From a virus (taxonomy: Duplodnaviria; Heunggongvirae; Uroviricota; Caudoviricetes), in IMG/VR virus record IMGVR_UViG_638341087_000009, positions 1-11,597 of that record: a stretch of DNA of 11,597 nucleotides; one strand, given 5' to 3'. The notes under the pieces are model-generated. The model searched no databases and was not told where the DNA came from. It saw only the letters and a program-made list of their open reading frames with translations. Both the position numbers and the translations under genes were made by a program. Shown in pieces: positions 1-11,122 of this stretch (the first letter of the stretch is position 1; the number at the start of each line of letters is the position of its first letter).

Positions 1-478
1 ACAGAGAATCCACCCATAACACTGTTTTTGGTTTTAACTGTTCCGCGTGCGCTGAGCCGCATTCACCGCATCACAAAATTCACTTTAAAAAGGGCGGCAG
101 AGCAGCCACGGAGTAAAACTGATACCGCCAAACGTCACCAGAAAATTGATAACAGAGGGCGTTGCAGCGGGGTTGTCACTTAAGCGTATGGTCAACCTGA
201 CAACCCGGTGTCCTCAACGGGGAAGGAATAACCCCGCCATACTTACCGCCGCGCCATTTCGCGGAGTGCCACAACCGGAAGCGCACGGTCGACGAAAATT
301 TAACGACAGGCTATCTATGAACCAGCTACCTCGCCGTGCGCTTTCGCGTTATGGTCTGACTTTTCAGGGAAATATCCTTTCAGTAAACTGTCAGTGCCGG
401 ATGCTCACCCGTGTCCGGCGCACGTACTCCACCTCACCCGTGGAGAACTCCTTAATCACCAACCCTCAGGAGGGTGAA

Positions 479-754
479 ATGTCGACTGAAAATGATGAAA
501 TCATTAACTCCCTGATACGCCAAATTAATAATTTTGATAAAGCATTGCAGCATGCTGCGGCGCGTAGTGATATAACTCTTTTAGCAATTTCATTTCTTGC
601 ATCTGTTATGGATAAAAATGAAGTCGTACGACAGAGTCTTGTTGATTATATCGACTCGCTTCAACCCGGCACTTTCAATCATGAGAGCTTCAATCATGAG
701 AAAGAGCATGTTAAGTCTGTAATTAATTCTCTTATTTTGAATCAAAAGAATTAA
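479..754 (+). CDS. Hypothetical small protein (91 aa), AT-rich insert (moron-like) in the early-left region
   Basis: ATG at 479 preceded by AGGAGGG (466-472, 6-nt spacing). Visibly lower GC than flanks. In-frame 15-bp tandem duplication (674-686 / 689-701, encoding FNHES/FNHEK). The upstream part of the 146..754 track ORF is Arg/Pro-rich, GC-rich and has no SD, so the start was moved to 479. No family recognised. Confidence 0.5.
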   Translation: MSTENDEIINSLIRQINNFDKALQHAAARSDITLLAISFLASVMDKNEVVRQSLVDYIDSLQPGTFNHESFNHEKEHVKSVINSLILNQKN

Positions 755-1052
755 TGCTTTTTGTTGCAAAGTAATTTTCAAGGGGTTCTATTCGAATCCC
801 TTTCTTTTTCATTAACAAGCCAAACCCCTTATCAATGATGTCCATTAGATCCAGGAAGTATTTTTCATGTAAATCCTGGTTATCAGAGAGCTGCTTCTCT
901 TCGTACAGACCGATAAAGGCACGACGCACGTTACCGGATATAGTATCGATGGTTTCTTTTTCTACGGTACTCAGGTCAAGAGTCGCCAGTTGGGAACGAA
1001 CTATATTCGCTGCCATTTCCTGGAATTGCATTGGTAAATCTTTAAATTCCAT
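732..1052 (-). CDS. Hypothetical protein (106 aa), last gene of the leftward early operon
   Basis: ORF with GAGG 6 nt upstream of ATG (complement of 1050-1052). Its 3' end overlaps the 479..754 gene convergently by 23 nt. No family recognised. Confidence 0.5.
   Translation of the reverse strand: MEFKDLPMQFQEMAANIVRSQLATLDLSTVEKETIDTISGNVRRAFIGLYEEKQLSDNQDLHEKYFLDLMDIIDKGFGLLMKKKGIRIEPLENYFATKSINSFDSK
780..809 (+). terminator. Candidate intrinsic terminator downstream of the 479..754 gene
   Basis: Hairpin 782-788 / 794-800 (GGGGTTC / GAATCCC, one G-U pair, 5-nt loop) followed by TTTCTTTTT (801-809). It lies inside the 3' end of the convergent 732..1052 ORF. Confidence 0.35.
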
Positions 1053-1074
1053 TATTAGCCTCGTTGGTTAGCTA

Positions 1075-1293
1075 TTAACGCGGGTATGTAATCATTCTGG
1101 CAATGCTTAATGCCGCTGCTTTTTCCAGATTGGTGATATCCTGCTCCAGAGCGGACAGATTTTCAGCCTGCTTAGCCCTGGCTTCATTAGCCCATTTCAG
1201 ATCCTGCGCTGCATTAATTTTCTGGCGCATCCACTCATAAAGTTCATCATCGGTATAGTCTGGCGAGATGATGACGGGTTCTCGTTTCTGCAT
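1075..1293 (-). CDS. Hypothetical small coiled-coil-like protein (72 aa)
   Basis: ORF with GAGGAA 5 nt upstream of ATG (complement of 1291-1293). Charged, helical-looking sequence; 22-nt gap to the next gene downstream. Confidence 0.55.
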   Translation of the reverse strand: MQKREPVIISPDYTDDELYEWMRQKINAAQDLKWANEARAKQAENLSALEQDITNLEKAAALSIARMITYPR

Positions 1294-1322
1294 ACTGATT
1301 CCTCGCGGTGCTGCTTCGCTTA

Positions 1323-1451
1323 TCAGCCGTTAGATTTTGCCGAGCTGGAAAGCGCCTGTTTAAACTCACTGAAGCTGAGAGCTTCTTCGCCTTCGGCAAG
1401 GCCTTCGAAGTATTCTTCGTAAGCCTTTTCCATGATTGTGTCGAAATCCAT
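1323..1451 (-). CDS. Small acidic protein (42 aa), not in the supplied ORF track
   Basis: Hand translation of the minus strand gives MDFDTIMEKAYEEYFEGLAEGEEALSFSEFKQALSSSAKSNG. AGGTGA lies 6 nt upstream; the start sits 1 nt after the stop of the upstream 80-aa gene. The two listed ORFs covering this interval (1247..1456 -, 1308..1505 +) look like frame shadows. Confidence 0.45.
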   Translation of the reverse strand: MDFDTIMEKAYEEYFEGLAEGEEALSFSEFKQALSSSAKSNG

Positions 1452-1452
1452 A

Positions 1453-1695
1453 TCACTCACCTGAGTTTCTTTCCAGCCAGCGACGGGCACCATTTTCGGT
1501 TTTAAACGTTTTGCTTTTGGTATACGTCATCGCGGTGAATGTGCCGTCCTGGTTGGGAAACACGCCGTACACCAGAGATTCATTGTTGCCAAGATCGATA
1601 GTATCCATGCTGACCTCATTTCCCCTTAACGCCGGGGTAGCGGAACTAAAAAACTGCTGCGCTGTTATATAAAGTGTTCCCGCCGTCATGTTCAT
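1453..1695 (-). CDS. Hypothetical protein (80 aa), first gene of the leftward early operon
   Basis: ORF with GAGGCG 4 nt upstream of ATG; sits about 85 nt downstream of the pL-like promoter. Not Arg-rich, so not obviously N-like. An internal Met would give a 50-aa product. Confidence 0.5.
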   Translation of the reverse strand: MNMTAGTLYITAQQFFSSATPALRGNEVSMDTIDLGNNESLVYGVFPNQDGTFTAMTYTKSKTFKTENGARRWLERNSGE

Positions 1696-1787: not shown

Positions 1788-1817
1788 ATCATAAAACACA
1801 TAAAATGTGTTAGTCAA
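1788..1817 (-). promoter_or_regulatory. pL-like sigma70 promoter for the leftward early operon
   Basis: Minus strand reads TTGACT (complement of 1812-1817), 18-bp spacer, TATGAT (complement of 1788-1793). Read directly from the sequence. Confidence 0.5.
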
Positions 1818-1831
1818 CACAAAAAAAGTGT
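1795..1831. promoter_or_regulatory. Two operator-like palindromes (ACACA-N5-TGTGT type) inside the pL-like promoter
   Basis: Site A 1795-1811 AACACA-TAAAA-TGTGTT, a perfect 17-bp palindrome in the promoter spacer. Site B 1817-1831 ACACA-AAAAA-AGTGT, overlapping the -35. Centres are 21 bp apart (two helical turns). The same motif recurs at 2849-2865. Confidence 0.5.
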
Positions 1832-1840
1832 GCGCAAGAA

Positions 1841-1872
1841 TAAAAAAACTCCCATTCAAGAGGTGATGGGAG
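1841..1872 (-). terminator. Intrinsic terminator ending the repressor/toxin-antitoxin transcript
   Basis: Stem 1849-1855 CTCCCAT / 1866-1872 ATGGGAG, followed on the minus strand by a 7-nt U tract (plus-strand A run 1842-1848). Immediately downstream of the ParE-like stop. Confidence 0.6.
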
Positions 1873-1883
1873 GTGGTTGATTA

Positions 1884-2171
1884 TTAACCGTTACCAGGAT
1901 ATTGCTGACGAGCATGTATCACGCTTACAATTTCAATGCTTGAAGTCGCTACCCTGTATAGGATTATGTAGTTAGGGTGGGTCACAATTTCTCTCAATCC
2001 AGAAACCCGTTCGCTTGGCGGGTATAGATACGGATGCTCAGATAGGGGCAGCACCGATGTTTCAATGCGTATTTTTAGTCTGCGCGCTGCCGGAGGGTTT
2101 TTTTTAGCAATGTAAGTTATAATCTGACTTAAATCATCGCGAGCAGACGGTAACCATAAAACGGGCAGCAT
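1884..2171 (-). CDS. parE: ParE/RelE-family type II toxin (95 aa)
   Basis: MLPVLWLPSARDDLSQIITYIAKKNPPAARR...YIILYRVATSSIEIVSVIHARQ fits the ParE pattern (L.W...A..DL..I..YIA...P.AA ... Y.I.YRV......I..V.HARQ). The start overlaps the upstream antitoxin stop (TAATG). The longer track ORF (136 aa) has an implausible Arg/Lys-rich N-terminal extension. Confidence 0.85.
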   Translation of the reverse strand: MLPVLWLPSARDDLSQIITYIAKKNPPAARRLKIRIETSVLPLSEHPYLYPPSERVSGLREIVTHPNYIILYRVATSSIEIVSVIHARQQYPGNG

Positions 2172-2362
2172 TACACGCTCCCGTTTTCCATGGCAATTTG
2201 ATTGATGATTTTTTCCATTTTTGCCATTACTTCGTCGTGCGGTATTGCTGGTCGTGGATCTGCAAGGCTTGCTGCAACCTTGGCGCGCAACCATTCGTTG
2301 TAACTGTTTTCTTGCTCGATAGTTTCAAATTCTGAAACTATTGGCGAAAGAACTGTGCTCAT
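2171..2362 (-). CDS. Cognate antitoxin (63 aa), ParD-like by context
   Basis: MSTVLSPIVSEFETIEQENSYNEWLRAKVAASLADPRPAIPHDEVMAKMEKIINQIAMENGSV. GAGAGG lies 7 nt upstream of the ATG; it is translationally coupled to parE. Assignment as antitoxin is strong; the exact family is less certain. Confidence 0.65.
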   Translation of the reverse strand: MSTVLSPIVSEFETIEQENSYNEWLRAKVAASLADPRPAIPHDEVMAKMEKIINQIAMENGSV

Positions 2363-2390
2363 AGTATGCCTCTCTGTCGTATGGTTGTAA

Positions 2391-2789
2391 TTATGCTCGA
2401 CGTCCTTTTTGGGCGGCGAGCCATCTTGCAACTGTGCGATCCATTGATTCTTTTTTGTCTTTCATGTCTTTAAGCATTTGTTCTTGCTCCTCTTCTGGGA
2501 AAGCCCCAAATGTTTGAAGCAAATCTCTCTGGCGCGGTCCTATTTTCATTGTATCAGGTACTACAACCTGTTCATCCTCGCTCGGAGGAAGCATGAACCA
2601 AAAAATAGGCCGAGCAGTTATTTGTGAAAGTCGATCTAAATTGTCAGGATTTGGACTAACCAAGCCTGCAGACCATCGCTGCACTGTTTGTTGCGACACT
2701 CCAACTAATTTCCCAAGCTCCGCCTGACTCCAGCCTGTTTCAGACAAGAGTTTCTTTATTCTATATGCAGTAATCTCGAGTGTTTTCAT
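2391..2789 (-). CDS. racR: Prophage repressor, RacR-like (XRE-family HTH), 132 aa from the proposed start
   Basis: HTH motif ...GWSQAELGKLVGVSQQTVQRWSAG... near the N-terminus. Start chosen at MKTLEIT (complement of 2787-2789); a TAGAAT -10 lies about 7 nt upstream, suggesting a near-leaderless mRNA like lambda cI from pRM. The alternative upstream start (2879) has no SD and would run through the operator region. Confidence 0.75.
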   Translation of the reverse strand: MKTLEITAYRIKKLLSETGWSQAELGKLVGVSQQTVQRWSAGLVSPNPDNLDRLSQITARPIFWFMLPPSEDEQVVVPDTMKIGPRQRDLLQTFGAFPEEEQEQMLKDMKDKKESMDRTVARWLAAQKGRRA

Positions 2790-2796
2790 AGTAACA

Positions 2797-2869
2797 ATTC
2801 TACTCAAAAAACGAGTAATGCGCGACACACGAAAATCGGGTTTACATATACACATTTTTTGTGTAATCT
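2797..2869. promoter_or_regulatory. Immunity switch region: divergent promoters and operator palindromes
   Basis: Leftward -10 TAGAAT (complement of 2797-2802) with a poor -35. Rightward TTTACA (2841-2846) with a -10-like TGTAAT/TAATCT (2862-2869). Palindrome TACACA-TTTTT-TGTGTA at 2849-2865 has the same half-sites as the pL operators. A second, different palindrome TACTC-N7-GAGTA sits at 2801-2817. Confidence 0.5.
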
Positions 2870-2895
2870 CCAGTCGCATGATGGAGGTACAAATA

Positions 2896-3168
2896 ATGAA
2901 TGATCATGTTAAGAAAAGGGTCGCGGGAAAATTTTCACAACGAGAACTGGCTATGTTAATGAGCACGAAACAACAAAGCGTATCTCGTTGGTTCAACTCT
3001 AAGTTCCCTGCATCAAGGGTGCTTCACTTGTGTCAATTGATGCAGTGGGAGGTTACTCCACACGAACTCCGACCAGACATTTACCCTAACCCAACCGACG
3101 GTTTACCCGTTGGATGTAAGGCTAACACATCAAATGCACCGGAGTTGATTCATGAAAATCAAGCATGA
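2896..3168 (+). CDS. ydaS: YdaS-like Cro/HTH protein (90 aa)
   Basis: GGAGG (2883-2887) 8 nt before ATG 2896. HTH-like ...FSQRELAMLMSTKQQSVSRW.... Divergent from the repressor, as in the Rac racR-ydaS-ydaT arrangement. The track ORF from 2818 is an upstream extension through the operator region. Confidence 0.7.
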   Translation: MNDHVKKRVAGKFSQRELAMLMSTKQQSVSRWFNSKFPASRVLHLCQLMQWEVTPHELRPDIYPNPTDGLPVGCKANTSNAPELIHENQA

Positions 3169-3577
3169 ACACATCCGCATGGCGATGAATGCCTGGGCGC
3201 ATCCGGACGGCGAGAAAGTACCGGCTGCGAAAATTACCAAAGCGTATTTCGAACTGGGTATGACGTTCCCGGAACTGTATGACGACAGCCATCCGGAAGC
3301 CCTGGCTCGCAATACCCAGAAAATTTTCCGCTGGGTAGAGAAAGACACTCCTGATGCGGTTAAAAAAATTCAGGCGTTGTTACCAGCTATCGAAAAAGCA
3401 ATGCCACCTCTGCTGGTGGCCCGAATGCGCAGCCATAGCTCAGCCTATTTTCGGGAACTGGTGGAGACGCGGGAACGACTGGTGAGAGACGCTGATGATT
3501 TTGTCGCAGTGGCGATCGCTGGTTTCAACCAGATGAATCGTGGTGGCCCTGCAGGAAATATTGTGGCTGTGCATTGA
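3152..3577 (+). CDS. ydaT: YdaT-like protein (141 aa)
   Basis: ATG 3152 with GGAG 7 nt upstream; overlaps the ydaS 3' end by 17 nt. Sequence MKIKHEHIRMAMNAWAHPDGEKVPAAKITKAYFELGMTF... and the synteny recall Rac prophage YdaT. Confidence 0.7.
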   Translation: MKIKHEHIRMAMNAWAHPDGEKVPAAKITKAYFELGMTFPELYDDSHPEALARNTQKIFRWVEKDTPDAVKKIQALLPAIEKAMPPLLVARMRSHSSAYFRELVETRERLVRDADDFVAVAIAGFNQMNRGGPAGNIVAVH

Positions 3578-3648
3578 CTCGCAATATTCATACCGGATCA
3601 CTTCCGGCAATTTGTGAGTAAAAAGATTCGGTATCAGAAGAGGTGAGT

Positions 3649-4686
3649 ATGGCTAACGCCTGGCTCAGATTATGGCATGACATGCCAAATGATCCTAAGT
3701 GGCGAACAATTTCCAGGGTGTCAGGACAGCCAATCGCAACAGTGATGGCTGTGTATATCCACCTTCTGGTGAGCGCGTCACGAAATGTCACGACATGTCA
3801 CGGCGTGTCACTACGTGGTCACATTGATGTCACGACGGAAGATTTAGCAAGTGCGCTTGATGTGACGGAAGACGTAATTGATTCAATTTTGCATGCAATG
3901 CAGGGGCGGGTTCTGGATGGTGACCTTATTTCCGGATGGGAAAAACGTCAGGTGCTGAAAGAGGACAATGGTAACGTTTCGCAAACGGCAAAATCCCCGG
4001 CAGAGCGCAAGAGAGCGCAGCGGGAGCGCGAAAAGCTGCGGAAATATGATGCTGATTGTCACGATGAGTCACGACGTGTCACGCATCTGTCACGACAAGT
4101 CACGACAGATAAAGATACAGATACAGAATTAAACCCCACACATAACGCGCGCATGCGCGAGAGTGCTCCAACCGGTGAGTCGAATGGTGCGTCGTTGCAG
4201 ACAGCCGAACCTGAATACCTGGACGGCCTGAGCGAACCGATCGGGAAATTTTCGATGACCACTGTCTGGCAGCCGTCGCCGGATTTTCGACAACGGGCAG
4301 CAGTGTGGGGTATGGCTCTGCCTGAGCCGGAATTTACACCTGCTGAGCTTGCCGCATTCCGGGATTACTGGATGGCGGAGGGGAAGGTTTTCACGCAGGT
4401 TCAGTGGGAGCAGAAATTTGCCCGCCACGTGCAGCACGTCAGGGCACAGGTAAAACCAGTCAGCAAGGGGGTAAGCCATGCAGCATCAGGTGGCACGGCA
4501 TCACGGGCAGTTCAGGAAATCCGGGCAGCACGCGAACAGTGGGAACGTGACAACGGATTTATCAGCAACGGAAACGGCCTGGAAGCTGTGGGAGCTTATG
4601 GGGGAGGTGTATTCGAACCGCTGGACACAGAAGAACGGGGCCGCACCTTCGAAGCTCTGGATTGCCCAGATTGGCGCGATGACTGA
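3649..4686 (+). CDS. Replication initiator (lambda O-like role); 3' boundary uncertain
   Basis: ATG 3649 with GAGGTG 4-9 nt upstream. The N-terminus MANAWLRLWHDMPNDPKWR looks like a phage replisome-organiser N-domain. The gene contains two iteron clusters in its low-complexity linker, as the lambda origin lies inside O. The last 209 nt overlap the P-like gene in another frame. Confidence 0.65.
   Translation: MANAWLRLWHDMPNDPKWRTISRVSGQPIATVMAVYIHLLVSASRNVTTCHGVSLRGHIDVTTEDLASALDVTEDVIDSILHAMQGRVLDGDLISGWEKRQVLKEDNGNVSQTAKSPAERKRAQREREKLRKYDADCHDESRRVTHLSRQVTTDKDTDTELNPTHNARMRESAPTGESNGASLQTAEPEYLDGLSEPIGKFSMTTVWQPSPDFRQRAAVWGMALPEPEFTPAELAAFRDYWMAEGKVFTQVQWEQKFARHVQHVRAQVKPVSKGVSHAASGGTASRAVQEIRAAREQWERDNGFISNGNGLEAVGAYGGGVFEPLDTEERGRTFEALDCPDWRDD
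3777..3834. repeat. Iteron cluster 1: six GTCAC(G) repeats at 10-11 bp spacing
   Basis: GTCACG at 3777, 3787, 3797 and 3829; GTCACT at 3807; GTCAC at 3818. Units resemble tGTCACGnnn. Confidence 0.75.
4058..4135. repeat. Iteron cluster 2 (five GTCACG repeats) with an adjacent AT-rich patch: candidate origin
   Basis: GTCACG at 4058, 4068, 4078, 4089 and 4099 (10-11 bp phasing), followed by AGATAAAGATACAGATACAGAATTAAACC (4107-4135). Confidence 0.7.
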
Positions 4687-5140
4687 ACAGCAAATCCGGC
4701 TGGTCTGCCGTCAGTGCATGGACCGCTGCCGGGCGGGTGAAACGTGGCCCCCGGACCTTGCTGAGTTTGTTGCACTGATTTCGGAGAGTGGGGCAAATCC
4801 ATTTGGTCTTACGGTGGATGCAGTGATGGAAGAGTACCGGCGCTGGCGCAATGAATCCTGGCGATACGACGGGAGTGATAAATACCCGTGGCCACAGCCT
4901 GTGCTGTACCACATCTGCCTCGAAATGCGTACCAGAGGGATTGAGCGCCAGATGACGCAGGGTGAGTTAAAACGACTTGCGGAACGGCAACTGACGAAAT
5001 GGGCAAAGCATGTTGGTAACGGGATGAGTGTTCCGCCAGTGCGACGACAACTGGAAGGGGCGAAACACCCGCAAGGGCCAACGCCAATTGAACGGCTGAA
5101 ACAGGAATACGAACGCCGGAAGGCAGCTGGTTTTATTTGA
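4478..5140 (+). CDS. Lambda P-like replication protein (DnaB helicase loader), 220 aa
   Basis: Segment ...DLAEFVALISE...MEEYRRWRNESWRYDGSDKYPWPQPVLYHICLEMRTRG...ELKRLAERQL... matches from memory lambda P (...FVAWCRE...YEYCRKRGLYPDAESYPWKSNAHYWLVTNLYQNMRANALTDAELRRKAADEL...). AAGGGGG (4465-4471) lies 6 nt before ATG 4478. Alternative in-frame starts are ATG 4598 and ATG 4679, the latter overlapping the O-like stop as ATGACTGA. Confidence 0.7.
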   Translation: MQHQVARHHGQFRKSGQHANSGNVTTDLSATETAWKLWELMGEVYSNRWTQKNGAAPSKLWIAQIGAMTEQQIRLVCRQCMDRCRAGETWPPDLAEFVALISESGANPFGLTVDAVMEEYRRWRNESWRYDGSDKYPWPQPVLYHICLEMRTRGIERQMTQGELKRLAERQLTKWAKHVGNGMSVPPVRRQLEGAKHPQGPTPIERLKQEYERRKAAGFI

Positions 5141-8386: not shown

Positions 8387-8440
8387 TGCTGCGGGCGCTT
8401 GAGGCTGTCTGCCTCGGGCATGCCACCGTAAGGCAGACAG

Positions 8441-8512
8441 AGAAAAGCCCCAGTTAACATTACGCGTCCGGCAAGACGCTTAACATTAATCTGAGGCCAT
8501 ATCTATGCTCTA
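8441..8512 (-). ncRNA. Candidate Sok-like antisense RNA (about 70 nt)
   Basis: Weak minus-strand promoter (TTGCCT, complement of 8543-8548; 17-bp spacer; TAACCT, complement of 8520-8525). Transcript would be antisense to the mok-frame SD and ATG (8493-8507). It would end in a minus-strand hairpin (arms 8491-8497 / 8447-8453, inner stem 8464-8468 / 8475-8479) followed by UUUUCU. Structure-based inference only. Confidence 0.3.
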
Positions 8513-8561
8513 CACACGTAGGTTAGCCTCTTACGTGCCGAAAGGCAAGGAGAAGCAGGCT

Positions 8562-8717
8562 ATGAAGCAGCAAAAGGCGATGCTAATCGCCCTGATCGTC
8601 ATCTGTTTAACCGTCATAGTGACGGCACTGGTAACGAGGAAAGACCTCTGCGAGGTACGAATCCGAACCGGCCAGACGGAGGTCGCTGTCTTCACAGCTT
8701 ACGAACCTGAGGAGTAA
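8562..8717 (+). CDS. hokD: Hok/Gef-family type I toxin (51 aa), closest to HokD/RelF; in-frame Mok-like extension from ATG 8505
   Basis: MKQQKAMLIALIVICLTVIVTALVTRKDLCEVRIRTGQTEVAVFTAYEPEE is the Hok family signature (transmembrane helix plus ...TRK.LCE..IR.G..EVAAF.AYE). AAGGAG (8547-8552) lies 9 nt before ATG 8562. The upstream in-frame ATG 8505 with its own GAGG gives a 70-aa form, as in chromosomal mok genes. Confidence 0.85.
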   Translation: MKQQKAMLIALIVICLTVIVTALVTRKDLCEVRIRTGQTEVAVFTAYEPEE

Positions 8718-10223: not shown

Positions 10224-10583
10224 ATGCTCATAGATTTGGTTTTACCTTACCCGCCGACGGTGAACACTTACTGGCGACGCCGTGGCAGCACATATTTTGT
10301 ATCAAAAGCCGGGGAGCGTTATCGCCGGGCTGTGGCGCTTATTGTTCGCCAGCAGCGACTGAAATTAAGCCTGTCCGGACGGCTGGCAATAAAAATTATT
10401 GCAGAGCCACCGGATAAGCGTCGTCGTGACCTGGACAATATTCTGAAAGCACCGCTGGATGCGCTGACGCATGCGGGAGTGCTCATTGATGACGAGCAGT
10501 TTGATGAAATCAATATTGTACGTGGTCAGCCAGTATCTGGTGGACGGCTGGGTGTGAAGATTTACAAAATTGAGAGTGAGTGA
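10224..10583 (+). CDS. rusA: RusA-family Holliday junction resolvase (119 aa)
   Basis: ...LPYPPTVNTYWRRRG...PPDKRRRDLDNILKAPLDALTHAGVLIDDEQ...GGRLGVKIY... matches RusA motifs recalled from memory (PPSNNRYY..., PDRRRRDLDN..K...DALT.AG...DD, GGRL). GAGGTG lies 4 nt before the ATG. Confidence 0.85.
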   Translation: MLIDLVLPYPPTVNTYWRRRGSTYFVSKAGERYRRAVALIVRQQRLKLSLSGRLAIKIIAEPPDKRRRDLDNILKAPLDALTHAGVLIDDEQFDEINIVRGQPVSGGRLGVKIYKIESE

Positions 10584-10591
10584 GCGTAAAT

Positions 10592-11122
10592 ATGATATAT
10601 CCGGAAATTACAGGCAAAAGCGGCGAACATTTACGCCTGAACACGCTGGAAGCAGTCTGGATCCAGGGGAAATTACGGATGTGGGGGCGGTGGTCGTATA
10701 TCGGTGGGGGTAAATCCGGAAATATGTTTAACCGGTTACTGGTTTCGAAAAAGCTGACGAAAACAGCAGTTAATGAGGTTTTACGCAGCATGAAGAAATC
10801 CGGGCTGGAAAAACCGGAACTTGAGGCATTTTTTCGGGATATGACCAGAGGGAAGCAGAAGAGCTGGTTGTCACATTGTACAGACACAGAGGCGTTGATT
10901 ATTGATCGCGTTATCAGTGAGGTGCTTGGGGAATATCCCGGGCTAATCAATATTCTCCGGCAAAGGTACGAAGGACGGGGAATGAGTAAGAGAAAAATGG
11001 CAGAATGTTTAAATCGTACTCACCCGGAATGGTGTTTCAGCACATGTGAGAAACGTATTGCAGGTTGGTTAGCCGTGGCTGAACACATGCTTTATGTACC
11101 TATGCACGATTCATTTCGATAA
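10592..11122 (+). CDS. Q-like late-gene antiterminator (176 aa); assignment mainly positional
   Basis: Immediately follows rusA (start 8 nt after its stop) and precedes a short terminator-bounded region, as Q does in lambdoid phages. Sequence similarity to Q families is not verified. Confidence 0.5.
   Translation: MIYPEITGKSGEHLRLNTLEAVWIQGKLRMWGRWSYIGGGKSGNMFNRLLVSKKLTKTAVNEVLRSMKKSGLEKPELEAFFRDMTRGKQKSWLSHCTDTEALIIDRVISEVLGEYPGLINILRQRYEGRGMSKRKMAECLNRTHPEWCFSTCEKRIAGWLAVAEHMLYVPMHDSFR

Follow-up and report, generated by a model that had tools for sequence, protein, structure and literature searches.

Among the closest described systems is the immunity region of prophage CP-933P (Jurenas et al. 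2021, PMC8630535; Prolic-Kalinsek et al. 2023, PMC9986795). PaaR2 and YdaS of CP-933P leave overlapping footprints in the intergenic region and repress both promoters, YdaT activates the promoter PRE933P, and the switch is bistable (PMC8630535). [quoted passage not shown] With the immunity region on a plasmid, most exponentially growing cells were ydaST-on, and a paaR2 stop mutation gave a measurable, all-ydaST-on population; no toxic effect of YdaT was detected, and prolonged overexpression of YdaS or PaaR2 led to growth defects (PMC8630535). Footprint, ITC and tetramer data are published for CP-933P YdaT, whose operator was mapped by footprint as 5′-TTGATT-N6-AATCAA-3′ and whose recognition helix has one fully conserved residue, Arg60 (PMC9986795).

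YdaT of Rac activates a reverse promoter (PracR4, ~190 bp from the box) through the same box, reported there with one change; R57-W58 were named as important, and the YdaT proteins of Rac and CP-933P cross-activate (PMC11879457). Silencing of racR derepresses ydaS–ydaT and kills K-12 (PMC5700377, PMC5700373; bioRxiv 2026), and expression of Rac YdaT cuts CFU by four orders of magnitude (PMC11879457). Toxicity of Rac YdaS was reported by one group and denied by another. The lethality of Rac YdaT has been tied genetically to host rcsA, whose promoter is activated by Rac YdaT and not by CP-933P YdaT (PMC11879457). In Qin, dicA is an essential prophage repressor gene, according to the Jobling letter (PMC5917428). 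Both the CP-933P and the Rac work drew a comparison with cI–cro–cII of lambda (PMC8630535, PMC11879457).

We analysed a stretch of 11,597 nucleotides from a Caudoviricetes record (IMGVR_UViG_638341087_000009), hereafter the window. As the preliminary description had observed, a ydaS-like and a ydaT-like gene overlap here by 17 nt, and the Pfam families agree with these names. The two genes occupy the cro and cII slots of a lambdoid immunity region, between a repressor gene and O/P-type replication genes, and very probably encode Cro-like and CII-like regulators that work with a DicA/PaaR-family repressor. The genes are as follows.

92–1695, minus strand: leftward early operon (ydfA-like gene, small ORFs, ydfC and DicF)
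92–143, minus strand: DicF sRNA (Rfam, 75 bits vs a gathering score of 48)
1075–1293, minus strand: ydfC, 99% identical to K-12 Qin YdfC
1453–1695, minus strand: ydfA-like DUF1391 gene (Pfam DUF1391)
1884–2171, minus strand: parE-type toxin gene (Pfam ParE_toxin, E 2e-17; ParE2 of PDB 5cw7, E 4e-37)
2171–2365, minus strand: paaA-type antitoxin gene (Pfam PaaA2, E 2e-22; PaaA2 of PDB 3zbe, E 4e-23)
2391–2789, minus strand: immunity repressor gene (132 aa; N-terminal HTH, C-terminal PaaR/DicA-type domain)
2896–3168, plus strand: ydaS-like gene, probable Cro analogue (90 aa, HTH; ATG at 2896, stop at 3166–3168)
3152–3168, plus strand: ydaS/ydaT overlap (17 nt, read from the sequence)
3152–3577, plus strand: ydaT-like gene, probable CII analogue (141 aa; ATG at 3152, stop at 3575–3577)
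3643–4686, plus strand: O-like DnaT-domain gene (Pfam DnaT, E 3e-17)
3643–5140, plus strand: replication block, closed by a lambda-P-family gene that ends at 5140 (Pfam Phage_lambda_P, E 1e-15)

On sequence similarity, the repressor is assigned to the DicA/PaaR family and is not a relative of RacR. It matched Pfam HTH_3 (E 5e-10) and, under the cut-off of the model, the NCBIfam DicA model (E 6e-16). A second paaR-type locus of O157:H7 (strain H2495; locus L003) encodes a repressor with 62% identity to it over the full length. Identity to K-12 DicA is 28% (E 3e-13); identity to PaaR2 (53%) is confined to the C-terminal 55 aa, and the N-terminal HTH is not alignable. No similarity was detectable to K-12 RacR (BLASTP E = 1) or to 'dicA' of Rac-SA53, and a Pfam scan of the repressor gave no Peptidase_S24 match, that is, no LexA-type peptidase domain. 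The genes for repressor, PaaA and ParE follow one another on one strand—a layout shared with H2495, with E. coli RM9088, which carries a 96%-identical locus, and with Sp12—and paaA, downstream of the repressor gene, presumably belongs to the same operon. PaaA and ParE match the structurally solved ParE2–PaaA2 complex. Sp12, found from the gene annotation of the Sakai genome, is CP-933P; locus L003 of H2495 is not, and may correspond to the homologous system located in CP-933M by PMC8630535.

The rightward operon starts with ydaS, which diverges from the repressor gene across a 106-bp spacer that holds operator-like palindromes; GGAGG stands at 2883–2887, 8 nt 5′ of the ydaS ATG (read from the sequence). 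YdaS passed the cut-off of Pfam PF15943 'YdaS_toxin' (40.6 bits, E 2e-10; cut-off 30), matched HTH_3 below the cut-off of that family (E 6e-4) and PHROG phrog_35 'transcriptional repressor' (E 2e-25), and gave a weak match to the Xylella prophage Cro structure 3bd1 (E 0.008). Its phage homologues, for example in Gifsy-1/2 and SPN3UB, carry Cro annotation. Identity to Rac YdaS was 32% over 63 aa, and BLASTP produced no alignment with CP-933P YdaS or with DicC of Qin. Given this lack of pairwise similarity to the studied CP-933P protein, the Cro assignment of YdaS rests on profiles and position.

For YdaT the comparisons reach further. The protein, with GGAG at 3141–3144 5′ of its ATG (read from the sequence), passed Pfam PF06254 'YdaT_toxin' (39.1 bits; cut-off 21) and matched phrog_163 'CII-like transcriptional activator' (E about 4e-45; 3.5e-45), PDB 3c4r (97% identity over all 141 residues) and PDB 8bt1 (E 2e-80). 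By homology to these solved structures it would consist of a POU-like HTH domain and a C-terminal tetramerisation helix. Phage vB_EcoS-689R5 has an identical protein (100%), annotated 'activator protein cII', whose gene is flanked by cro and replication gene O. Compared with ECs_2277 of Sp12/CP-933P, identity is 85% overall and 85 of 90 residues in the DNA-binding domain (residues 1–90); residues 58–61 (IFRW) are the same in CP-933P and align with HRW of Rac YdaT, and the recognition-helix residue Arg60 is retained. Rac YdaT is 33% identical over its full length and begins with the same eight residues (MKIKHEHI). The pair had been described as cargo, a term that finds no support for genes in the cro and cII positions, one of which encodes a protein annotated as cII in a sequenced phage.

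The sites that may control these genes are as follows.

1788–1831, minus strand: PL-like promoter (TTGACT, 18 nt, TATGAT; 10 of 12 matches in the scan)
1796–1810 and 1817–1831: OL-like operators (pattern matches that overlap the PL-like promoter)
2797–2802, minus strand: candidate PRM −10 element TAGAAT, 7 nt 5′ of the repressor ATG
2802–2864, unstranded: OR-like operator cluster (inverted repeats)
2841–2869, plus strand: candidate PR (TTTACA, 17 nt, TAATCT; operator 2850–2864 in the spacer; read by eye)
2931–2959, minus strand: candidate PRE analogue (TTAACA, 17 nt, TG-n-GAAAAT; inside ydaS)
3145–3162, unstranded: YdaT box (OM operator), TTGATTCATGAAAATCAA, which fits the footprinted CP-933P site without mismatch

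TTGATT-N6-AATCAA has a single exact match in the window, the YdaT box at 3145–3162, which covers the ydaT start codon and lies within the final codons of ydaS. The same 18-mer was found in the same place in RM9088, the second O157:H7 locus and Sp12, and with one change in Rac; the box is thus positionally conserved in five loci, the window included. By extension from the CP-933P and Rac homologues, YdaT would bind this box and activate a reverse promoter. The overlap of the two genes would follow from a ydaS allele that reads through the box at the ydaT start. Its length is also annotated as 17 nt in H2495 and in RM9088, where PGAP calls the same two genes and the replication gene order downstream of ydaT is likewise annotated, and as 4 nt in Sp12; in Rac, ydaS and ydaT do not overlap and are separated by a 22-nt gap (ydaS end 3662, ydaT start 3685 of L001). 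The architecture had been equated with that of Rac. This holds for the divergent repressor gene and for the YdaS and YdaT families, but not for the gene overlap or for the repressor itself.

The OR-like cluster comprises the palindromes ACTC-N7-GAGT (2802–2816) and ACAC-N7-GTGT (2850–2864) and a half-site (2826–2840), with centres 24 bp apart. The pattern ACWC-N7-GWGT occurs five times in the window vs 0.48 expected (0 of 200 shuffles reached five), and its matches cluster at OR and OL. These are likely the operators that the repressor would bind. Three ACAG-N7-CTGT-type sites have the same layout in L003; the half-sites there are altered (ACAG/CTGT vs ACAC/GTGT), and L003 and the window are therefore probably heteroimmune.

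PR and PRM in the intergenic region fell below the threshold of a strict sigma-70 consensus scan; the candidates given here are weaker and were chosen by eye. PR is placed at 2841–2869 on its position and on analogy with PR933P (PMC8630535), and the earlier statement that the pair is under repressor control is very probably right, with operator-like palindromes inside this putative promoter. No Shine–Dalgarno sequence precedes the repressor ATG, and from the position of the candidate PRM −10 element the repressor mRNA may be leaderless; CP-933P has GATAAT 6 nt 5′ of the paaR2 ATG. The reverse site at 2931–2959 is a weak candidate for a PRE analogue, modelled on the Rac arrangement. It lies 186 bp from the YdaT box, was the sole promoter-like match of the scan in 1800–3700 and the sole reverse site with at least 8 of 12 matches inside ydaS; the same filter found no PRE-like site in L003. 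A tR1-like structure was sought in the ydaT–O spacer, which folded no better than shuffles (z = −1.3). We also considered an OOP-like antisense RNA, from a minus-strand terminator-like hairpin in ydaT (3420–3403), and rejected it: such sites are as numerous as shuffles predict, and the scan showed no promoter for it.

Overall, the window resembles CP-933P/Sp12 in its gene order (parE, paaA and the repressor gene on one strand, divergent from ydaS, ydaT and the replication genes), in its YdaT and YdaT box, in homologous ParE and PaaA proteins and a related C-terminal repressor domain, in a −10-like hexamer 6–7 nt before the repressor ATG that suggests a leaderless mRNA, and in operator sets (here putative) at OR and at a PL-type promoter. 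The two differ in immunity specificity: neither the repressor HTH nor YdaS is alignable by BLASTP, and the operators are ACWC-N7-GWGT palindromes in the window vs GTTTAGTAA-type repeats in CP-933P. The intergenic region is also longer (106 vs 97 bp), as is the overlap, and the replication genes are of the O/P type here and of different size in Sp12. In L003, repressor and YdaS are each 62% identical to those of the window (the C-terminal 45 aa of YdaS are near-identical), and the YdaT box, the arrangement of three operators and the overlap of 17 nt recur; its downstream replication module differs.

Rac shares the synteny of repressor, cro-like, cII-like and replication genes, the same Pfam families and a YdaT box 1 nt off that of the window, which also spans the ydaT ATG; unlike the window, it has an unrelated repressor, no gene overlap and no paaA–parE, and its YdaS and YdaT belong to the same family but to another subgroup. 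In Qin, the ydfA-like gene, ydfC and DicF stand in the same order and DicA is a relative of the repressor, whereas DicC is not similar to YdaS, no paaA–parE lies between dicA and ydfA, and the cII-like gene is truncated (YdfX, a YdaT relative with 36% identity). The analogy with lambda would extend to divergent repressor and Cro genes with common operators, a leaderless repressor mRNA, a CII-type tetramer acting on a reverse repressor-establishment promoter, and O and P downstream. Lambda CII and YdaT have no sequence homology in fold class (YdaT is POU-like) and differ in target (an inverted repeat for YdaT, not a direct repeat); the repressor here also lacks a RecA-dependent autocleavage domain, and a toxin–antitoxin pair takes the place of rexA–rexB.

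Among 5426 complete E. coli genomes, 3036 carry the YdaT allele and 12 the immunity allele; this ydaT type occurs at up to 7 places in one genome. Compared with L003 and Sp12, the HTH regions of the repressor and of ydaS diverge jointly with the intergenic region and OL, and ydaT is shared, a mosaic typical of lambdoid immunity. A megablast search with the whole window returned no identical record (best match, 95% identity over 81%). The switch is of a known type; its immunity variant is new and adds a rare third specificity to the PaaR/DicA repressor family.

On this basis, the switch could work as follows. In the lysogen, the repressor would occupy ACWC-N7-GWGT sites at OR (2802–2864) and OL (1796–1831), shutting off both the rightward promoter, which would serve ydaS, ydaT, O, P and the genes as far as a Q-like one, and the leftward promoter, which would serve the genes from ydfA to DicF; a weak, probably leaderless PRM-type promoter would supply a transcript for repressor, paaA and parE. 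On loss of repression or on infection by a phage, YdaS would compete for the operators of the repressor and keep the repressor promoter off. A YdaT tetramer on the box across its own start codon would then turn on the reverse PRE-type promoter and restore repressor synthesis.

How far loss of the repressor would harm the host, and through which genes, bears on the toxicity that had been proposed for the pair. One explanation, to which we give slightly better than an even chance, is that ydaS and ydaT are regulators only and that repressor loss is harmful through other genes: the operon of DicF and probably dicB, a Q-like lytic cascade or a disturbance of paaA–parE. DicB and DicF block cell division in the Qin system. 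A strong promoter-like site directed leftward, 5′ of the ydfA-like gene, ydfC and DicF, is overlapped by the OL-like operators, and this gene order equals Qin dicA–ydfABC–dicF–dicB, where a relative of the repressor, DicA, is essential (PMC5917428). dicB itself was not found inside the window, which counts against this explanation, as does the fact that repressor binding at OL is deduced from the pattern matches; the gene lies to the left in the RM9088 prophage and in phage vB_EcoS-689R5, and probably stands just past the window edge. PaaA and ParE, with their match to the ParE2–PaaA2 complex, add a second possible route, given the addictive paaR2–paaA2–parE2 locus, whereas the ORFs after PL933P in CP-933P offer no assignable function in support of a leftward one (PMC8630535).

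The preliminary description had instead taken the pair for potentially toxic, on the precedent of reports on RacR essentiality and ydaS–ydaT lethality in Rac, which do exist (PMC5700377, PMC5700373). That the two genes are lethal here when derepressed, and the repressor essential for that reason, we consider improbable. The killing of K-12 on racR silencing and the loss of CFU with Rac YdaT speak for such lethality, as do the Pfam families, which take their names from the Rac 'toxins', the YdaT box common to Rac and the growth defect from long overexpression of CP-933P YdaS (PMC8630535). Yet YdaT of the window is only 33% identical to the Rac protein, and its 85%-identical relative in CP-933P had no detected toxicity and does not activate the rcsA promoter to which Rac lethality is linked (PMC11879457). 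ydaST-on cells are common with the CP-933P plasmid, and its paaR2 stop mutant population could be measured (PMC8630535); moreover, the repressor is not related to RacR and an identical YdaT appears as cII in sequenced phage records. If repressor loss is harmful, DicF/DicB, the lytic genes or ParE are likelier causes than ydaS–ydaT.

That YdaS and YdaT form a true type II toxin–antitoxin pair is hardly tenable: the Pfam names 'YdaS_toxin' and 'YdaT_toxin', the PGAP name 'toxin YdaT family protein' and the small, adjacent, overlapping genes suggest it, but the names come from an unconfirmed computational prediction (PMC5917428), the CP-933P and Rac experiments conclude that the proteins are transcription factors (PMC8630535, PMC11879457), the DNA-binding fold of YdaT is POU-like and its operator is defined (PMC9986795), co-induction of Rac YdaS and YdaT was not additive and the part of the Rac report available to us describes no neutralisation of YdaT by YdaS, and neither protein matched any NCBIfam family, toxin–antitoxin models included, or any PADLOC model.

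For biology, the outcome of reading ydaS and ydaT as Cro-like and CII-like regulators is small and amounts to a corrected name: the inherited designations 'toxin YdaT family protein' and 'YdaS_toxin' suggest toxin cargo where a Cro/CII-type switch stands. Deletion of the repressor would probably be harmful apart from ydaS–ydaT, through the DicF/DicB operon, the late genes or a polar effect on paaA–parE; as a test of toxicity it would be confounded, because the repressor probably gates the DicF operon and heads the paaA–parE operon, and it would mislead if these loci were left uncontrolled. The clear difference in half-sites (ACAC vs ACAG) could serve studies of repressor–operator co-evolution. 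Heteroimmune prophages have the same YdaT box (with one change in Rac) and ydaT occurs at up to 7 places per genome, and YdaT could therefore be a shared, immunity-independent signal that couples the lysis–lysogeny decisions of co-resident prophages, an idea that we put forward tentatively and think rather unlikely; less likely again is that the YdaS allele is growth-inhibitory by itself at its native derepressed level. If YdaT were such a signal, the protein from one induced or infecting phage would drive repressor synthesis in every co-resident prophage that bears the box, and paaA–parE at this locus would be switched on as well.

The ydaS-like and ydaT-like genes are open reading frames of 90 and 141 codons that overlap by 17 nt (3152–3168). 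Pfam analysis assigned YdaS to PF15943 (YdaS_toxin) and YdaT to PF06254 (YdaT_toxin), both above the curated cut-offs, and in E. coli RM9088 PGAP annotates a 96%-identical locus with the same three gene calls and the same overlap, confirming the overlapping pair and divergent repressor noted in the preliminary description.

1884–2171 (−): ParE toxin gene, next after the repressor and paaA on the same strand
2171–2365 (−): PaaA2-type antitoxin gene, next after the repressor on the same strand
2391–2789 (−): HTH repressor gene (132 aa), divergent, 106 bp from ydaS
2883–2887 (+): Shine–Dalgarno sequence of ydaS (GGAGG)
2896–3168 (+): ydaS-like gene
3141–3144 (+): Shine–Dalgarno sequence of ydaT (GGAG)
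3152–3577 (+): ydaT-like gene

A search of the phage collection matched YdaT at 100% identity to the 'activator protein cII' of Escherichia phage vB_EcoS-689R5; phages including Tritos and Evi encode proteins 97–99% identical to YdaT, and in these phages the relatives lie between a cro gene and the replication gene O. PHROGs families describe YdaT as a 'CII-like transcriptional activator' (E = 4e-45) and YdaS as a 'transcriptional repressor' (E = 2e-25), and YdaS homologues are annotated as Cro in phages such as Gifsy-1/2 and SPN3UB. Downstream of ydaT, Pfam identified an O-like gene with a DnaT domain and then a lambda-P-family gene. Given the phage homologues, the PHROGs families and the downstream O/P-type genes, ydaS–ydaT take the places that cro and cII hold in lambdoid immunity regions and hence are core regulatory equipment, not the cargo they had been labelled. 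Read as its longest ORF (4478–5140, +), the lambda-P-family gene would share 209 nt with the O-like gene (4478–4686); its start is probably near 4679, because the RM9088 P gene is annotated at 462 bp and has just 8 nt in common with O. Inside the O-like gene, GTCACG(A/G)C repeats in 10-bp phase form two clusters (3777–3836 and 4057–4106, +; 10 matches to TGTCACGAC with ≤1 mismatch, 2.1 expected) that look like origin iterons, as in the lambda ori in gene O. An antisense terminator-like hairpin in ydaT (3403–3420, −; GCCACCAGCAGAGGTGGC then ATTGCTTTTT) recalls the lambda OOP RNA opposite cII; this candidate was rejected, as such sites were just as numerous as shuffling predicts and a search for its promoter gave none.

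Comparison with the K-12 Rac region showed a likeness in synteny and common Pfam families and nothing beyond. YdaS and YdaT are 32% (over 63 residues) and 33% (overall) identical to their Rac counterparts, the repressor has no similarity to RacR (E = 1), and Rac ydaS and ydaT are separated by a 22-nt gap. The proposed Rac-like architecture therefore holds for gene order and protein families, but not for the overlap or the repressor. YdaT is 97% identical to structure 3c4r and matches 8bt1, YdaT of the O157:H7 prophage CP-933P, at E = 2e-80. The YdaT (ECs_2277) of Sp12, the identical prophage in the Sakai genome, is 85% identical; its DNA-binding domain, residues 1–90, differs at only 5 positions. 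In Sp12, ydaS and ydaT overlap by 4 nt. On sequence comparison, YdaT of the window belongs to the CP-933P subgroup.

The overlap coincides with an operator. The CP-933P YdaT footprint contains the site 5'-TTGATT-N6-AATCAA-3' at the end of ydaS (PMC9986795), and Rac YdaT protects ATGATTCATGAAAATCAA, spanning its own start codon (PMC11879457). The sole exact match to this YdaT box in 11.6 kb is TTGATTCATGAAAATCAA at 3145–3162, with the ydaT ATG inside the 6-nt spacer; the identical 18-mer occurs at the identical position in RM9088, Sp12 and H2495 (the second paaR-type locus of O157:H7), and with one change in Rac. The ydaS frame reads on through the box (…E-L-I-H-E-N-Q-A-stop), which accounts for the 17-nt overlap. 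YdaT residues 1–8 (MKIKHEHI) are identical to those of Rac YdaT, despite the low overall identity, a pattern that would fit constraint on the DNA sequence itself.

In Rac, silencing of racR derepresses ydaS–ydaT and causes cell death (PMC5700377, PMC5700373), an effect that later work ascribed to YdaT, not YdaS (PMC11014345), and tied genetically to host rcsA, whose promoter YdaT activates directly (PMC11879457). Such toxin behaviour is improbable for the present pair because its YdaT falls in the CP-933P subgroup: CP-933P YdaT cannot activate the rcsA promoter, yet cross-activates a YdaT-box promoter (PMC11879457), and no toxic effect was detected by the authors (PMC8630535), which argues against the suggested repressor-gated toxin. 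In CP-933P, growth defects appeared only upon prolonged overexpression of YdaS or PaaR2, the cloned immunity region was in the ydaST-on state in most growing cells, and a paaR2 stop mutant yielded a measurable, all-ydaST-on population (PMC8630535). A letter by Jobling likewise treats the proteins as Cro and cII homologues, which ectopic toxicity does not make toxins (PMC5917428). Uncertainty about toxicity rests mainly with the YdaS allele, which BLASTP could not align to CP-933P YdaS.

The repressor is a member of the DicA/PaaR family, being 62% identical to the H2495 repressor, 53% identical to PaaR2 (only over the C-terminal 55 residues) and 28% identical to K-12 DicA (E = 3e-13); Pfam detected no LexA-type peptidase domain. 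PaaA and ParE match the solved PaaA2–ParE2 complex (ParE to 5cw7, E = 4e-37; PaaA to 3zbe, E = 4e-23), and it is paaA–parE, rather than ydaS–ydaT, that gives the immunity module its established toxin. Putative operators lie on both sides of the repressor–paaA–parE genes.

92–143 (−): DicF sRNA (Rfam RF00039; 75 bits, gathering score 48)
overlapping 1796–1831: leftward promoter-like site (TTGACT, 18 nt, TATGAT)
2802–2816: 15-bp palindrome ACTC-N7-GAGT, repressor–ydaS intergenic region
2850–2864: 15-bp palindrome ACAC-N7-GTGT, same region

A half-site lies between the intergenic palindromes, giving 24-bp spacing, and the window has five matches to ACWC-N7-GWGT (0.48 expected). Copies at 1796–1810 and 1817–1831 overlap the leftward promoter-like site, which is strong and lies just past parE. 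This site faces a ydfA-like DUF1391 gene, ydfC (99% identical to Qin ydfC) and DicF, with which the ydfA–ydfC-type operon ends close to the window's left boundary. The order is that of the Qin dicA–ydfABC–dicF–dicB locus, and dicB is expected just past the left edge. Qin YdfX (96 aa; 1847–2137 of the K-12 Qin region, L008) aligns with YdaT over its N-terminal 83 residues (36% identity, E = 4e-8) and looks like the truncated remnant of a CII-type protein, adjoining dicC. The H2495 relative, which is probably heteroimmune, has the same layout of three right (OR) and two left (OL) sites, of ACAG-N7-CTGT type; predicted half-sites of ACAC/GTGT here and ACAG/CTGT for the 62%-identical repressor make a neat case of repressor–operator co-variation. 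By eye, a candidate rightward promoter (TTTACA, 17 nt, TAATCT) carries a putative operator in its spacer, and TAGAAT precedes by 7 nt the repressor ATG, which lacks a Shine–Dalgarno sequence and resembles the start of paaR2, whose leaderless state is experimental. We infer both the rightward and repressor promoters, neither of which was reported by the strict promoter scan.

Binned identity to H2495 and Sp12 drops to 35–60% over ~2550–3050 (repressor HTH, intergenic region and ydaS HTH) and to the same level at ~1800–1880 (OL), and reaches 94–100% through the ydaT DNA-binding domain, from mid-ydaS on for H2495 and from the YdaT box on for Sp12. This is the classic lambdoid pattern of immunity cassettes exchanged around conserved flanks. 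The immunity segment occurs in only 12 of 5,426 complete E. coli genomes; the ydaT type occurs in 3,036 of them, in up to seven places per genome, adjoining variously annotated cro-type genes.

Loss of the repressor may well be deleterious in this locus. The repressor gene heads the paaA–parE operon, and its product probably gates the DicF division-inhibitor operon (DicB likely included) and a rightward cascade towards a Q-like gene.

10580–11122 (+): DUF1133 protein, also matching the phage antiterminator Q family (E = 1e-8)

As this gene follows DUF968 and RusA genes, the rightward operon reaches a Q-type late regulator. Because of these several targets, simple repressor deletion with and without ydaS–ydaT, as previously suggested, would not isolate the contribution of that pair. 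The window also holds a hok/sok type I toxin–antitoxin locus (8393–8567, +; ORF 8505–8717, +), in which sok RNA (RF01794, 114 bits) overlaps a Mok/Hok-like ORF (…MKQQKAMLIALIVICLTVIVTALVTRKDLCEVRIRTGQTEVAVFTAYEPEE). ParE, hok/sok and DicF are more plausible killing functions nearby. Within the characterized CP-933P/Qin/Rac family of lambdoid switches, this module is a heteroimmune member, with YdaS in the predicted role of Cro and YdaT in that of CII; what is new here is only a rare immunity specificity within an already characterized switch family.
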